A DNA stretch of 64,000 bases from an uncultured Chloroflexia bacterium (GCA_963721545.1 CAVRKB010000001.1:38131-102130), one strand, 5' to 3'; shown: positions 58,738 to 64,000, counted from the stretch's first letter. The notes: generated by a model from the sequence alone, not told the origin. Made by a program: numbers and translations.

Positions 58738-59730
58738 ATGACGGACCATGCGATCGCCATGCCGCGGCGTACCTCGGCGATGGAGCGGTATCTGGCCGCG
58801 GAGACGCGGCTGTGGCAGCACTACGGATTGGCACCGCGCGAGCGGTTCGTCGAGATCGCCCGGCCGCGGGCGAAGCTTCGCGTGCTCGAGGCGGGATCGG
58901 GACCGCCGGTCCTGTTCCTCCACGGCACGGTCGGTCCGGGATCGTGGCCGTCGCTCGTCGCCGGCCTGCCCGGGTTCCGGAGTCTCGTGCTGGACCGTCC
59001 GGGATGGGGCCTCAGCACACCGGTGGAGTTTCCGCGCAGCGGCTACCGTGCCTTCGTCGCGGACCTGCTCGCCGCGTCGCTCGATGCGCTCGACATCGAC
59101 CGGATCGACGTGGTCGGCGGGTCGATCGGCGACCTGTGGGCGCTCAGCCTCGCGGAACACCATCCGGATCGGGTCGGCCGCGTCGCCCTCCTGGGTGCCG
59201 GTCCAATCGCCCCGGCGGTCCCGGTCCCGACCGTTCATCCGGGTCGTGTCCTCGCCGATCGGAGCGATCATCGTCCGCCTGCCCGTCAGCCCGGACCGAG
59301 TCCGCTCGATCCTGCGCGACAGCGGGCACGGACCGAGCCTGGACGCCGGCCGGATCCCGGAGGCGTTCGTCGAGTGGCGCGTGGCGAACGACACCCAGAC
59401 GATCGCGATGCGACACGAACGATGCGATGGTGCGCCGGGTCGTCGACGGCTCGGCCTATCGGGCCGGCATCACTCTTCGACGACGACGCACTCCGGCTGA
59501 TCGATGCGCCCGTGCTGCTCGTCTACGGGACCGCCGACCAGACCGGGGACGCGGGCATCTGGCGGGCGTTCACGACCACCCTGCCGAACGGCTCCCTGGA
59601 GCTGATCGACGGCGCCGGCCACATGCCGTGGTTCGATGATCCCGGTCGCGTCGCGGCCCTGGTTGACGGGTTCCTGGCGCGCCCGGCGATCGAGGCGATG
59701 GTGCCCGACGCCGAGATCGGCATCGGCTAC
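58738..59730 (+). CDS. Alpha/beta hydrolase (frameshifts; end approximate)
   Basis: [38 protein letters not shown]. Confidence 0.85.
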
Positions 59731-61087
59731 GCGACCGCCGGCACCGGCTGCGCGGTCCTGACGAGATCCGGGATCACCTGCACGTCCAGCCACGACGCGG
59801 GATCGACCCGCGGCCGGATGAGCGCCGCCTCGCCGCCCGACGCGACCACCTCGGCCGGGATCGGGTGCGACAGGAAGTACGGGCATCGATTCGGTGAAGC
59901 CGTAGGCGCCGACATCGAGCACCGCCATGAGGTCGCCGACGGTTGGCGGCGCCATGACGGCGCCGGTCGCCAGCACGTCCAGGCCGGAGCACAACGGGCC
60001 CGCGACGGTCACCGGCGCGGGCCGTCCGCTCGAGGCGCCGAACAGCCGGACCCGGTGCTCCGTGCCGACCAGCGCCGGTCGCAGCACGTGGTGGACGCCG
60101 CCGTCGAGGATCGCGATCGACGTCCCGTCGACGGTCTTCGTGTCGACGACCCGGGCGAGGTAGGCGCCCGCCGGGCCGACGAGGAAGCGACCGGGCTCCA
60201 GCACGAGCCGCGCCTCGGCCAGGAAGGGATCGGTCGCCCAGCCGTGGACGATGCCGTCCAGCCCACGACCGAACCCGACGAGGTCGAGCGACTCCTCGTG
60301 CGGTTCGTACGGAATGCCCAGCCCGCCCCCGGCATCGACGATCCGGACGGTCGTGTGGCTCAGCCGCGCGAGCTCGCGGGCGGCGTGGGCGGTGCGTGGC
60401 GACGTGGGCGACGAGCGAGCTCGCCTCGAGCACGTTCGACGCGCCGAAGGCGTGCAGCCCGAGCAGGTCGAGATGCGCGGAACGCGCGGCCAGCCGCGCG
60501 GCGTCGATCAGGTCGCCCGCGTCCATCCCGAACTTGCCGGCGCCGTCGTCGCCGACGAGGCGGACGCGTTCGAGCCGGGCGACCTCCGACACCGCCGCGC
60601 GGAGCAGCACCGGCTGGCGCCGGCCGGCCGTGCGCGCGATGCCCTCGAGCCGTCCGAGCTCACCGAGCGATTCGACGGTGACCGCGCGGATCCCGGCGGC
60701 GACCGCCGCCTCGAGCTCACGGTCGCGCTTGCCCGGACCGGTCATGACGATTCGGTCCGGACGGATCCCGGCGCGGATCGCCGTCGCCAGCTCACCCTCG
60801 GACGCGACGTCGGCGCCGAGGCCGAGGCTGCCGAGGTGGGCCACGACGGCGAGCGCGGGGTTCGCCTTGACCGCGTACGCGAGGTCGACGCGCTCGGGCA
60901 GCACGGCACGGAGCGCCGCCACCTGCCGGTCGACGACGTCGAGGTCGTAGACGTACAGCGGCGTGCCGAACCGCTCGGCGAGATCGCGCGGATCGAGTCC
61001 GGCCAGCCGGCCCGCCTGGAGGATCTCGTTGCGCGCGGGCGGCCGGCCGCGACGCGGGCGGCCGGGCGGATCGAGGCTGGCGCTCAT
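59727..61087 (-). CDS. lysA: PLP-dependent fold-III decarboxylase, diaminopimelate decarboxylase by operon context (frameshifts)
   Basis: [61 protein letters not shown]. Confidence 0.75.
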
Positions 61088-61892
61088 CGGAGCGCCTCCT
61101 CCAGCGCCACGCGCGCGCTCGTGCCGGCGTCGCGGTCCTTGACGAGCAGCGCCACCGCCGCCGTCAGGCCGTGCGCCTGGGCGAACGCGCCGCCGACGGC
61201 CCGGGCGCCCGGGATCACGACCGCGCCGGGCGGCACTGCCAGCGGCATGTCCGCGGTCCCGACGAGCACCCGTTCGCGGACGAGGTCGTACAGGCGTGAC
61301 GTGCCGGTCAGCGTCACCCCGGCGCCGATGACCGCCTCGCGCCCGACGAGGACGCCGTCGAGCAGCGCGGAGCCCGCCCCGATGAACGCGCCGTCCTCGA
61401 CGATGACCGGCCGAGCCCCGGGCGGCTCGAGCACGCCGCCGATCGTGACGCCGGCCGCGAGGTGGACGTTCGCCCCGATCTGGGCGCAGGACCCGACCAG
61501 GACGTGCGAATCGACCATCGTGCCGTCGCCGATCCAGGCGCCGATGTTGACGTAGCTCGGGGGCATGACCACCACGTCCGAGCCCAGGTGCGCGCCGCGG
61601 CGAACGGCCGTTCCGCCCGGGACGATGCGCCACGGACCGTCGCGGACGTCGCGCGGCGGGACCGTGGCCCGGTCGCGGAAGGTGAGCGGCCCGGCCGCCC
61701 AGGTCGCGGCGGTCCGATCGCGGAACCGGTCCAGGATCGCGGCCTTGACGTCGGCTCGAACGCGCCAGCCACCCGGGACGGCCGGGTCCGGTTCGGCGGC
61801 GCGGATCCGCCCGGCTTCGAGGTCCTCGAGGAGGGTGTCGGGATCGACGGCGGCCGCGTCGTCTCGGTCGCGCCATCGTTGCCGGTCGTCAT
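61084..61892 (-). CDS. dapD: Tetrahydrodipicolinate N-succinyltransferase (frameshift)
   Basis: VKAAIL.RF, RIVPGGTAVRRGAHLG, MPPSYVNIGAWIG.GTMVDSH..VGSCAQIG..VHL.AG..IGGVLEP. Confidence 0.9.
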
Positions 61893-62845
61893 GCGACGGC
61901 CGCCCGGTCGGCGCTCTCGATCCGGCCGCCGGCCGATTCGACGATGCCGAGCCGGCGCAGGAGGCCGGTCAACGCCGCCCGCGGCTCCGGCTCCAGCGGC
62001 AGCAGGGGGGCCCGCACGGCGTCGCCGTCGAGCAACCCCATCGCGGCGAGCGCGGCCTTGACCGGCACCGGGTTCGGGGCGCCCCGGAAGTTGGCCAGGA
62101 ACAGCGGCAGCCAGCGCGCGTGGATCCGCCGGGCCGCGTCCCAGTCCCCCGACCGCGCCGCCGCGCACAGCGCCACGAGGGGACCGGGGATCTCGTTGCC
62201 GGCCACCGACACGACGCCGTCGCCACCGAGGGCGAGGACCGGCAGGGTCCAGGCGTCGTCGCCGGCAAGGACCGCGACGTCGCGCGGCCGCTCGGCGCAG
62301 ATCCGCGCGATCTGCTCGAGGTTGCCGCTCGCCTCCTTGACCCCGATGACGCGCGGATGCTCCGCCAGCCGCAGGAACGTGTCCGCGTCGACGTTCGAGC
62401 CCGTCCGCGACGGGACGTTGTAGACGACGATCGGCAGGTCGCCCTCGTCGGCGACCGCGCGGAAATGGGCCTCGAGCATCCGGCCGTCCGGCCGGTTGTA
62501 GTAGGGCGCCACGACGAGCGCCGCATCCGCACCGAGCTCGGCGGCCCGCCGCGTGGCGACGATCGTGGCCCGCGTGTCGTTCGTGCCGGTCCCGGCGACG
62601 ACGTGGACGCGCGCCCGGGACGGCCGTTCGGCCACGACCTCGACCGTCGTCGCGATCAGTCGATCGCGCTCGTCGGCCGACAGGGTCGGGGCCTCACCGG
62701 TCGTGCCACAGGGCACGAGACCGTCGATCCCGGCGAGGACCTGCCAGCGGACGAGCCGCCGGAACGCGTCGTCGTCGAGCCGGCCGTCCGGGGTGAATGG
62801 GGTGACGAGCGCGGTGTACGCGCCGCGGAGCATGGGTCGGGGCAT
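61889..62845 (-). CDS. dapA: 4-hydroxy-tetrahydrodipicolinate synthase
   Basis: TALVTPF, CGTTGE, GTGTN, APYYNRP, YNVPSRTG, GVKEASG, NPVPVK. Confidence 0.95.
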   Translation of the reverse strand: MPRPMLRGAYTALVTPFTPDGRLDDDAFRRLVRWQVLAGIDGLVPCGTTGEAPTLSADERDRLIATTVEVVAERPSRARVHVVAGTGTNDTRATIVATRRAAELGADAALVVAPYYNRPDGRMLEAHFRAVADEGDLPIVVYNVPSRTGSNVDADTFLRLAEHPRVIGVKEASGNLEQIARICAERPRDVAVLAGDDAWTLPVLALGGDGVVSVAGNEIPGPLVALCAAARSGDWDAARRIHARWLPLFLANFRGAPNPVPVKAALAAMGLLDGDAVRAPLLPLEPEPRAALTGLLRRLGIVESAGGRIESADRAAVA

Positions 62846-62883
62846 CGGAAGATCCTTTCTGGTCGAGGGCTGGACGGGGACGG

Positions 62884-63615
62884 TCAGGCGGCCACGGCGG
62901 CCGGCCGGGCCAGGAGGTCGTCGACGACGGGGTCGAATGGATGCAGGCCGGCCGTCCGGGTTGCCCCTCGGAGCCAGTCCGCTGCGGCCAGGGCGCCGGT
63001 CGCGTAGGCCGATCGGTCGCGGGCGGTCAGCCGGAGCTCGACGGTCTCACCGGCCGCGTCGAAGCCGACCAGGTGCATGCCCGGCGACGCCCCGGCCCGG
63101 ATCGACACGATCTCGAGATCGTGCTCCGGTGCGGGGTTCCGCCGACCCTCCGCCATCCGGCGGGCCAGCTCGAGGGCGGTTCCGGACGGACGATCCGCCT
63201 TCGCGCGCCGGTGCCACTCGACGAGGAACGGGTCGAACCCGCCGACGCCGCCGAACAGCCCCGCCGCCGTCTCGGCGAGCCGGAGGAAGAGGGCCACGCC
63301 GACGCTGAAGTTGGCCGACGCGACCGCCGCCGCTCCGGCATCGCGCAGGTCGCGCTCGACGGTCTCGCGGTCGTCCGCCCAACCCGTTGTTGCGATGACG
63401 AACCGCCGGACGCCGGCCTCGAGCGCGACCTCCACGTTGGCTCGCACGGCGATGCCGCGCGTGGCGTCGACCACGAGGTCCGCGTCCGCGAACGTCGCAG
63501 GGTCATGCCGGCCGGCCGCGGGCCGCCCGTGGATCGAAGCGCGTTCGCCGCGTGCCGCGGCCGCTGTCGCGATGGCGCCGCCGAGGTGGCCGTCGCCGAG
63601 GATGATCGTGTGCAT
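62884..63615 (-). CDS. dapB: 4-hydroxy-tetrahydrodipicolinate reductase
   Basis: VIATTGW, NFSVGV, EWHRRAK.D.PSGTA, SIRAG..PG.H, DRSAYATGAL; an alternative GTG start exists at 63630. Confidence 0.92.
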   Translation of the reverse strand: MHTIILGDGHLGGAIATAAAARGERASIHGRPAAGRHDPATFADADLVVDATRGIAVRANVEVALEAGVRRFVIATTGWADDRETVERDLRDAGAAAVASANFSVGVALFLRLAETAAGLFGGVGGFDPFLVEWHRRAKADRPSGTALELARRMAEGRRNPAPEHDLEIVSIRAGASPGMHLVGFDAAGETVELRLTARDRSAYATGALAAADWLRGATRTAGLHPFDPVVDDLLARPAAVAA

Positions 63616-63663
63616 CTGCGTGGTCCTCACTCATGCGTGGGGACCTCACGGGCCGGAGACATC

Positions 63664-63695
63664 AAAAAACCGCGGCCACCGTGATGGTGCCGCGG
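63664..63695 (-). terminator. Intrinsic terminator in the dapB leader (attenuator)
   Basis: CCGCGG-CACC-AUCAC-GGUG-GCCGCGG stem followed by UUUUUU, about 50 nt upstream of the dapB ATG. Confidence 0.85.
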
Positions 63696-63748
63696 CCCCT
63701 GGAGCCTCCGTTCCCTGGAGGCCCCGGTTCGTCGTTTCGGACGCGCCG

Positions 63749-63826
63749 TCAGAGCCCCAGGGCCCGTGCCTCCCGGCAGGGCCGCCAGAGCTTCTTCTTC
63801 GATTCCTCGGAGAAGCGGCGGTTCAT
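63749..63826 (-). CDS. Putative leader peptide MNRRFSEESKKKLWRPCREARALGL
   Basis: ATG at 63826, AAG AAG AAG at 63799-63791, TGA at 63751-63749; ATG lies 6 nt after the -10 hexamer. Confidence 0.65.
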   Translation of the reverse strand: MNRRFSEESKKKLWRPCREARALGL

Positions 63827-63832
63827 GCGCGA

Positions 63833-63861
63833 ACCATACGCATCAAACGAAGTTGATGCAA
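63833..63861 (-). promoter_or_regulatory. sigma70-type promoter of the lysine operon leader
   Basis: -35 TTGCAT (63861-63856), 17-nt spacer, -10 TATGGT (63838-63833). Confidence 0.65.
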
Positions 63862-63889
63862 CCATTTCTCCGGAGCGCCCGGATGACCC

Positions 63890-64000
63890 TCAAGCGGGGA
63901 GGTCGCGCTCCGCCGGTCCGACGTAGTTGACGTCGGGGCGGATCAGCCGGTTGTCGGCGGCCTGCTCGAGGACGTGGGCGGTCCACCCGGCGGTCCGCGC
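63890..64000 (-). CDS. Citrate synthase family C-terminus (5' part outside window)
   Basis: [36 protein letters not shown]-stop. Confidence 0.85.

Follow-up and report, generated by a model that had tools for sequence, protein, structure and literature searches.

A probable lysine-codon attenuator in the leader of a dapB-dapA-dapD-lysA operon from uncultured Limnocylindria, with related leaders carrying methionine or cysteine codons

The subject of this study is a short leader that lies on the minus strand of a 64,000-nt stretch of DNA from an uncultured Chloroflexia bacterium (GCA_963721545.1, CAVRKB010000001.1:38131-102130; hereafter the window), directly ahead of the lysine biosynthesis genes dapB-dapA-dapD-lysA. 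We read positions 63300-64000 on the minus strand, with the coordinates fixed by substring search, and found there a promoter, a leader open reading frame (ORF), hairpins, a terminator and then the four genes. A preliminary description of this DNA had named the promoter, an ATG 6 nt further on, a 25-amino-acid ORF with three AAG codons, a GCCUCC/GGAGGC hairpin, a terminator with U6 and dapB, and each of these was found where it had been placed; it had missed the hairpin P2, which is the largest feature of the locus. Judged from sequence comparison and folding, the element is most probably a ribosome-mediated (leader-peptide) transcription attenuator that would sense charged tRNA-Lys and control dapB-dapA-dapD-lysA. 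We divide the leader RNA into five strands: A (the 5' arm of P2), B (the 3' arm of P2 and the stop region), C (the 5' arm and loop of P4), D (the 3' arm of P4, D', and the adjoining GGGGCCGC, D'') and E (the 3' arm of the terminator). The features, all on the minus strand, are:

63833-63861, minus strand: promoter, with the -35 box TTGCAT at 63861-63856, a 17-nt spacer and the -10 box TATGGT at 63838-63833
63749-63826, minus strand: leader ORF of 25 codons, MNRRFSEESKKKLWRPCREARALGL, with the ATG at 63826 and the TGA stop at 63751-63749
63791-63799, minus strand: Lys codons AAG AAG AAG, their first bases 14, 11 and 8 nt 5' of strand A
63754-63791, minus strand: hairpin P2 (strands A and B), GCUCUGG-C-GGCCC-UGCC GGGA GGCA-C-GGGCC-CUGGGGC
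63778-63785, minus strand: strand A, GCGGCCCU, the core of the P2 5' arm
63730-63743, minus strand: small hairpin P3 (CGUC...GACG) 3' of the stop codon, from folding; variable
63701-63725, minus strand: hairpin P4 (strands C and D'), GGGGCCUCC AGGGAAC GGAGGCUCC
63692-63699, minus strand: strand D'', the partner of strand A, overlapping the bottom 4 bp of the terminator 5' arm
63664-63695, minus strand: intrinsic terminator, CCGCGGCACC-AUCAC-GGUGGCCGCGG (3' arm GGUG(G)CCGCGG), followed by U6
63616-63663, minus strand: linker between terminator and dapB, with a hairpin GGUCC...GGACC in the minimum-free-energy fold
59470-63615, minus strand: operon, with dapB at 63615-62884, dapA at 62845-61889, a dapD-like gene at ~61880-61084 and lysA at ~61111-59470

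The identities of the four genes are supported by Pfam matches to DapB_N/DapB_C, DHDPS, Hexapep (a DapD-like hexapeptide transferase) and Orn_Arg_deC_N with Orn_DAP_Arg_deC (LysA). The 16-bp stem of P2 lies within the leader ORF, from the last base of the third Lys codon to 2 nt before the stop codon. The terminator stem is GC-rich and 10 bp long, with a one-base bulge. Folding energies calculated with ViennaRNA were -27.5 kcal/mol for P2, -16.9 for P4 and -17.8 for the terminator, and the leader as a whole folded better than all of 200 shuffled sequences (z = -4.2). Lysine makes up 1.7% of the residues encoded in the genome from which the window comes, and 97% of its Lys codons are AAG. The folding score, this scarcity of lysine and the recurrence of the layout ahead of dapB in the relatives make a chance origin of the leader very improbable. 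A simple promoter/terminator scanner called neither a promoter nor a terminator on the leader, which we put down to a limit of the scanner because the stem carries the bulge and the -10 box is off consensus.

The leader is not confined to this genome. An exact 25-mer from it (TGGCGGCCCTGCCGGGAGGCACGGG) was found in more than 119 species-level genomes, nearly all of them metagenome-assembled genomes of Chloroflexota or Candidatus Limnocylindria/Limnocylindrales, so that the host lineage is an uncultured, mostly soil-dwelling group of Chloroflexota in the class Limnocylindria. A covariance model built from 14 leaders matched in 85 of the 151 genomes of the family (35 of 49 genera) and also in a second family of the class. 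Strong matches were single-copy, and each dapB-type leader that was inspected lay directly upstream of dapB; a few weak matches were spurious (L060, L235 and three antisense rows of alignment A2) and were set aside. Same-genus DapB proteins share just 61-66% identity, yet the leader nucleotides are near-invariant from the Lys codons to the terminator.

We then compared the 92 aligned dapB leaders, which come from ~36 genera in the two families. The start, the frame, the stop, at least two Lys codons and a terminator were kept in all 92. In leaders to which a start near the promoter could be assigned, the ORF is 19-29 codons long (median 25); its N-terminal part varies in sequence and length with indels that stay in frame, and it ends in TGA (54 leaders), TAG (33) or TAA (5). 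Of the three consecutive Lys codons noted in the preliminary description, only two (K-x-K) are invariant. The Lys codons directly 5' of P2 usually read K-x-K, where x can be K, Q, R, E, A, S, P or T, and the first of them lies 14 nt from strand A in 86 of the 92 leaders. A helix in which N-terminal codons would pair with the Lys codons (CUUCU:AGAAG), seen in the genus consensus, was considered as a cause of the AAG conservation and rejected, as it is absent from diverged leaders.

Within the lineage the distribution has gaps. No DapB match was found in three genomes of the same genus (G006, G020 and G023, each at least 90% complete) or in a sister family with small genomes, and there was no covariance-model match to the leader in G006, G023, G120, G144, G181 and a few others (G120, G144 and G181 were not searched for DapB). 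This suggests that the dap operon is present in some members of the lineage and absent from others, or that the pathway has diverged. In one further genome (G174) the leader L073 lacks one nucleotide of strand A (TGGCGCCCTGCC), which puts the short ORF out of frame, and the N-terminus of the dapB downstream is atypical; this may be a decaying copy.

The start of the leader ORF follows the promoter very closely. The arrangement TTGNNN-N16-19-NANNNT, 5-9 nt before an in-frame ATG or GTG, was present in 76 of 86 relatives compared to 1% of shuffled upstream sequences (a strict search for a TANNNT -10 box matched only 42 of the 92 leaders and was replaced by this relaxed form, which requires the -35 box). 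A Shine-Dalgarno-like motif occurred in one of the 76 leaders with this arrangement, whose geometry leaves no room for one. This promoter geometry without a Shine-Dalgarno sequence indicates leaderless or near-leaderless initiation, and in the window the ATG 6 nt past the -10 box is therefore probably such a start. The promoter spacer (63840-63860, minus strand) also holds a perfect 7-bp inverted repeat, GCATCAA-N6-TTGATGC, of which GCAT...ATGC is kept in relatives from the genus, while other genera have repeated TGCAT/ATGCA boxes upstream of the dapB promoter. The inverted repeat might serve as an operator for a second layer of control, exerted by a protein.

Lysine biosynthesis is a textbook case of riboswitch control, and the preliminary description had expected a search with the Rfam lysine model to be negative. 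It was: the lysine riboswitch RF00168 had no match in the leader of the window at E up to 10, nor was it found in the window's genome and 30 relatives, while the controls E. coli, B. subtilis, Thermotoga and Lactococcus scored. When the leader (63400-64000, both strands) was compared by cmscan with all 4227 Rfam families at E up to 10, two chance-level hits were obtained (asR3 and mir-1538), and the T-box model was unmatched. A new metabolite-binding riboswitch for lysine or an intermediate of the diaminopimelate (DAP) pathway could nevertheless govern the terminator, with the small ORF being incidental. The extreme nucleotide conservation from the Lys codons to the terminator despite the divergence of DapB would fit such an element, as would the presence of several helices plus a terminator. 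Besides the lack of an Rfam match, three observations make it highly improbable. First, start, frame and stop are kept in every leader, with three different stop codons in use and the indels in frame. Second, the conserved triplets are Lys codons with a free codon in the middle, which become Met or Cys codons in the paralogous leaders described below, and a ligand pocket would not be re-specified by two codons that lie outside the helices. Third, the conserved bases lie in stems that have alternative partners, not in junctions.

Are the helices themselves under selection? P2 was paired in 94.5% of cells of the alignment, and 8 of its 16 pairs had changed on both sides (3.2 +/- 1.1 in shuffles). 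For P4 and the terminator together the corresponding values were 96.8% and 14 of 19 pairs, and both-sided changes affected 6 of 8 P4 core pairs and 7 of 10 pairs of the terminator stem. P3 varies in sequence and length among the relatives. Both complementarities that had been pointed out previously exist, and they fared differently. The first, GCGGCCC (63785-63779) with GGGCCGC (63698-63692), belongs to the helix A:D'' (GCGGCCCU:GGGGCCGC), which we call ATa; it was pairable in 96.8-98.7% of cells, and it covaries, with three pairs changed on both sides compared to 0.3 in shuffles (for example GCGACCC with GGGUCGC in L098 and GCGGCUC with GAGCCGC in L106). The second, GGCCCUGG in the 3' arm of P2 with CCAGGGGCC, was pairable in 92% of cells, its covariation did not exceed that of the shuffles and it overlaps just two terminator bases; we rejected it as an antiterminator and regard it as a minor alternative only. 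A regular-expression search for D'' picked wrong sites in many leaders and was not used for the counts. A further helix, P3L, formed by B and C, was pairable in 91% of cells with weak covariation within the dapB leaders. In two paralogous leaders inspected by eye the B:C complementarity is kept with unrelated sequences, GUCUGAGGUC:GACCUCAGAC in L236 and GUCCCGC:GCGGGAC in L053.

As strands A and B of P2 are also coding sequence, we asked whether selection acts on the RNA or on the peptide. In the 13 codons 3' of the Lys codons, 70 variant codons were non-synonymous and 15 synonymous, with the pairing preserved. The compensatory changes in P2 include UGCC/GGCA to UUCC/GGAA (Cys to Phe and Ala to Glu), AGCC/GGCU and UGUC/GACA, and an in-frame 6-nt (2-codon) deletion occurs at its tip. 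What selection maintains is thus the pairing of the RNA together with the frame, the stop and the Lys codons, and not the sequence of the peptide. Because radical changes of the peptide preserve the pairing, this disfavors a ligand-sensing arrest peptide, i.e. the possibility that the nascent chain (..L-W-R-P-C-R-E-A-R-A..) stalls the ribosome near the stop codon with lysine or a related molecule, in the manner of TnaC or SpeFL. It is true that R-P 3' of the Lys codons is near-invariant, that W-R-P presumably resembles known arrest-peptide motifs and that a ribosome held at the stop codon frees strand A in our folding model. However, the invariant CGG-CCC coincides exactly with strand A, the replacements are radical also elsewhere in the peptide (C to F, S or Y; A to E; W to G, E or M), and two codons can be lost from it. 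An arrest peptide would also leave the matching of Lys, Met and Cys codons to the operons unexplained, and antitermination at high lysine would have the wrong sign for a biosynthetic operon. We consider it very unlikely.

The mechanism that we propose instead for the probable attenuator is an exchange between two sets of helices. In the OFF state A would pair with B (P2), C with D' (P4) and D'' with E (terminator), and in the ON state B:C (P3L) would be nested within A:D'' (ATa). When Lys-tRNA is ample, the ribosome would reach the stop codon just past P2 and depart; P2 would re-form and hide A, P4 and the terminator would form and transcription would end before dapB. When Lys-tRNA is scarce, the ribosome would stall with a Lys codon in its A site, leaving the base of P2 melted and strand A uncovered. 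The freed 3' part of B could then pair with C (P3L), which would block P4, and A could pair with D'' at the bottom of the terminator stem, so that the stem would fall short of the U tract and RNA polymerase would read into the operon. P2 would act in this scheme as an anti-antiterminator. The preliminary description had the antiterminator strand masked by the translating ribosome under lysine-replete conditions; in the refined model the strand is indeed hidden, by P2 and not by the ribosome. We regard the specific five-strand mechanism, which comes from modelling, as evenly poised between right and wrong.

Folding calculations bear on this exchange in several ways. The duplex energies were -19.8 kcal/mol for P3L and -16.6 kcal/mol for ATa (8 bp), and with ATa enforced the terminator was reduced to a 6-bp stem with the U tract out of reach. 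The ON fold lay only 4.5 kcal/mol above the OFF fold (-82.4 versus -86.9). The ribosome was modelled on transcripts that end just short of strand E. When its A site held the first Lys codon, the window's leader had ATa with P3L as its minimum-free-energy fold, and ATa formed in 81 of the 92 leaders; without a ribosome, ATa formed in 24 and P2 in 62. The outcome depended on the codon occupied and on the assumed edge of the ribosome footprint. For the codon at -14 (relative to strand A) ATa was obtained with all edges from 7 to 14 nt (62-73 of 85 leaders), and for the codon at -8 only with an edge of at most 8 nt (helicase-type). One codon past the last Lys (-5), ATa was found in at most 40 of 85 leaders with a 7-nt edge, in 20 with 8 nt and in none with 9 nt or more. 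The model thus predicts that the codons at -14, -11 and -8 (KKK in the window) form a sensing window, in which a stalled ribosome would open the base of P2 and leave A free.

Several points weigh against this reading. In full-length equilibrium folds, the terminator was part of the minimum-free-energy structure in every masked state. With a 12-nt, toeprint-type footprint, a ribosome on the last Lys codon (-8) covers part of A, and ATa was then found in none of the leaders. In the model ATa can form as well when the ribosome pauses on the stop codon, and such dwelling would be expected to raise basal read-through. The pair counts come from an alignment that had itself been fitted to the structure of the model, the covariation of ATa comes from few events, and ATa overlaps just 4 of the 10 terminator pairs. 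Finally, we infer the leaderless initiation from promoter geometry alone. As the terminator wins at equilibrium whatever is masked, a purely thermodynamic switch is rejected and the switch has to be kinetic.

The same equilibrium result would be expected if the hairpins and the terminator were constitutive, or if a protein controlled them, either a regulator that binds the RNA or a transcription factor on the promoter repeat, with the small ORF encoding a micro-protein or modulating mRNA stability; the GCAT...ATGC repeat that overlaps the promoter in the genus could also be taken in its favor. This explanation is quite unlikely, in our view, given that in the Lys family as in the Met family the first cognate codon keeps a distance of 14 nt from strand A, and that the codons match the pathway. 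In addition, the alternative fold (ATa with P3L) is nearly isoenergetic with the OFF fold, and a freely drifting peptide is unlikely to be a functional protein.

The match between codons and pathway emerged from weak second matches of the covariance model, which proved to come from paralogous leaders that share the scaffold of the dapB leader: a start close to the promoter, ..UGG CGG CCC.., GGAGG, a stop codon, a hairpin and a terminator shouldered by GGGGCCGCGG. This scaffold pattern occurred at 62 sites in 53 of the 151 family genomes, and a reversed control pattern at none. The paralogous leader loci in the relatives are L053, L056-L059, L107, L110, L111, L236 and L238-L267. In 30 of 33 distinct paralogous leaders AUG stands exactly 14 and 8 nt before strand A (M-x-M), and one paralogous leader has eight Met codons. 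Most of the M-x-M leaders inspected precede metY (O-acetylhomoserine sulfhydrylase; Pfam Cys_Met_Meta_PP, run for one representative), and two (L262 and L263) precede a ThrC-like PALP enzyme of the pyridoxal-phosphate (PLP) type. Leaders with C-S-C, C-C or a single Cys lie ahead of a beta-carbonic-anhydrase-like gene (Pro_CA) or of a putative cysE-like gene. The C-S-C versions go with the cysE-like gene, for which no Pfam family match was obtained and whose label was given by eye. The paralogs with Met or Cys codons retain ATa, in the form GCGGCCCC:GGGGCCGC, and in the folding model it formed in 29 of the 33 paralogous leaders with the first cognate codon masked compared to 12 of 33 unmasked. 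The window's own genome has a paralog as well (L237; contig C2, ~64130-64340, minus strand), in which a promoter TTGCGC-N17-TATCGT is followed 6 nt on by a GTG and the short ORF VNIRWSDAQVVRAPECCPGRPRRPEARV*, with Cys-Cys codons directly before GGCGGCCCCGCCG, then a terminator and a beta-carbonic-anhydrase-like gene that is apparently frame-broken. On its sequence, L237 is a candidate cysteine attenuator.

That two conserved triplets switch identity with the end product of the operon is a signature of sensing by tRNA charging, unlike a metabolite pocket. Together with the conserved Lys codons, frame, stop and terminator and with the covariation, these pathway-tracking paralogs support the ribosome-mediated lysine attenuator that had been proposed for the window. 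Of the antiterminator envisaged with it, the pairing of GCGGCCC with GGGCCGC is better supported than that of the P2 3' arm. A broader interpretation, to which we give about an even chance, is that the dapB leader belongs to a modular family of attenuators in Limnocylindria that share one scaffold, i.e. a leaderless ORF, strand A (GCGGCCC) in a hairpin of the ORF, the B:C exchange helix and a terminator shouldered by GGGGCCGC. The amino acid sensed would be set by the codons at -14 and -8, with Lys codons ahead of dap/lysA, Met codons ahead of metY and the ThrC-like gene, and Cys codons ahead of the cysE-like and beta-carbonic-anhydrase-like genes, and the switch would be a ribosome-triggered toehold exchange among five strands, not the four-region scheme. 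We know of no methionine-sensing leader peptide among the classical attenuators.

Some observations concern the surroundings of the leader. The linker hairpin at 63616-63663 takes in part of the dapB Shine-Dalgarno sequence GAGGA, and the linker of most relatives has CCUCC and GGCGGCCCCUC...GAGGGA (also seen as CCCCUC...GAGGGA), which resembles strand A; in read-through transcripts this hairpin might provide a possible extra translational layer. The gene upstream of the leader ends near 63890, and its C-terminal residues look citrate-synthase-like by eye. The dapD and lysA genes each have one break of the reading frame in the assembly: in dapD it lies near 61860, where the ATG frame is lost after ~12 codons, and in lysA at ~60200-60360, with the N- and C-terminal domains of LysA in different frames. 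Since the genome, though in only 13 contigs, has an estimated completeness of 61%, indel errors of the assembly are no less likely an explanation than true pseudogenes.

A widespread uncultured soil lineage thus appears to use the ribosome as a lysine sensor, and the scaffold has seemingly been re-targeted to Met and Cys by a swap of two codons. If this is confirmed, lysine (and methionine) would join the amino acids that are read by leader peptides, attenuation would extend to Chloroflexota and to leaderless mRNAs, and a small, codon-programmable sensor design would become available. Annotators would gain a marker for a conserved 170-nt element and for a 25-codon gene that gene callers miss.

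How does the dapB leader compare with known systems? A literature search for a dapB or Lys-codon leader returned none, and in the literature searched we did not find this attenuator family described, nor its lineage, its leaderless start or its five-strand, codon-swappable layout. The lysine cluster of Thermus thermophilus (the alpha-aminoadipate, AAA, pathway) is reportedly preceded by a short leader ORF with tandem Lys codons, a terminator and an antiterminator. The principle, and probably lysine sensing by such a leader itself, would therefore be known already. The dapB leader would be set apart from the Thermus system by the pathway (DAP, not AAA), the phylum and the leader sequence.

A comparative survey of RNA-based regulation in a different phylum, the Actinobacteria, detected no such element for operons of lysine or methionine (PMC1262725). 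Mycobacteria do have leaderless short ORFs encoding polycysteine, which are Cys-responsive attenuators of the downstream genes of their operons (Canestrari et al., bioRxiv 10.1101/834739). The dapB leader is similar to these in being a putatively leaderless short ORF with cognate codons. The mycobacterial ORFs act on translation by sequestration of the Shine-Dalgarno sequence, without an intrinsic terminator (10.1101/834739), whereas the dapB leader has a conserved terminator and is associated with lysine; the Cys-codon paralogs of Limnocylindria are their nearer functional analogues. With the lysine riboswitch (the L-box, RF00168) the dapB leader would share lysine-dependent premature termination before lysine genes, but the riboswitch senses lysine by direct binding, for which an ORF is not required.

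The leader also resembles the classical attenuators of E. coli and Salmonella (trpL, hisL, leuL, thrL, pheL and ilv). As in these, an intrinsic terminator precedes the first structural gene, the sensing codons are closely followed by the first helix, and the position of the ribosome would select between mutually exclusive helices. The dapB leader differs from them in the amino acid (lysine) and the phylum (Chloroflexota), and it matches none of them in sequence or in Rfam (Trp_leader, His_leader etc.). Its start is probably leaderless and not led by a Shine-Dalgarno sequence, its invariant cognate codons number just two and flank a free codon, and the antiterminator overlaps only the base of the terminator. 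In place of the 1-2-3-4 scheme the model has five strands; a hairpin within the ORF supplies the antiterminator strand as its 5' arm, and a second exchange (B:C) would release this strand.

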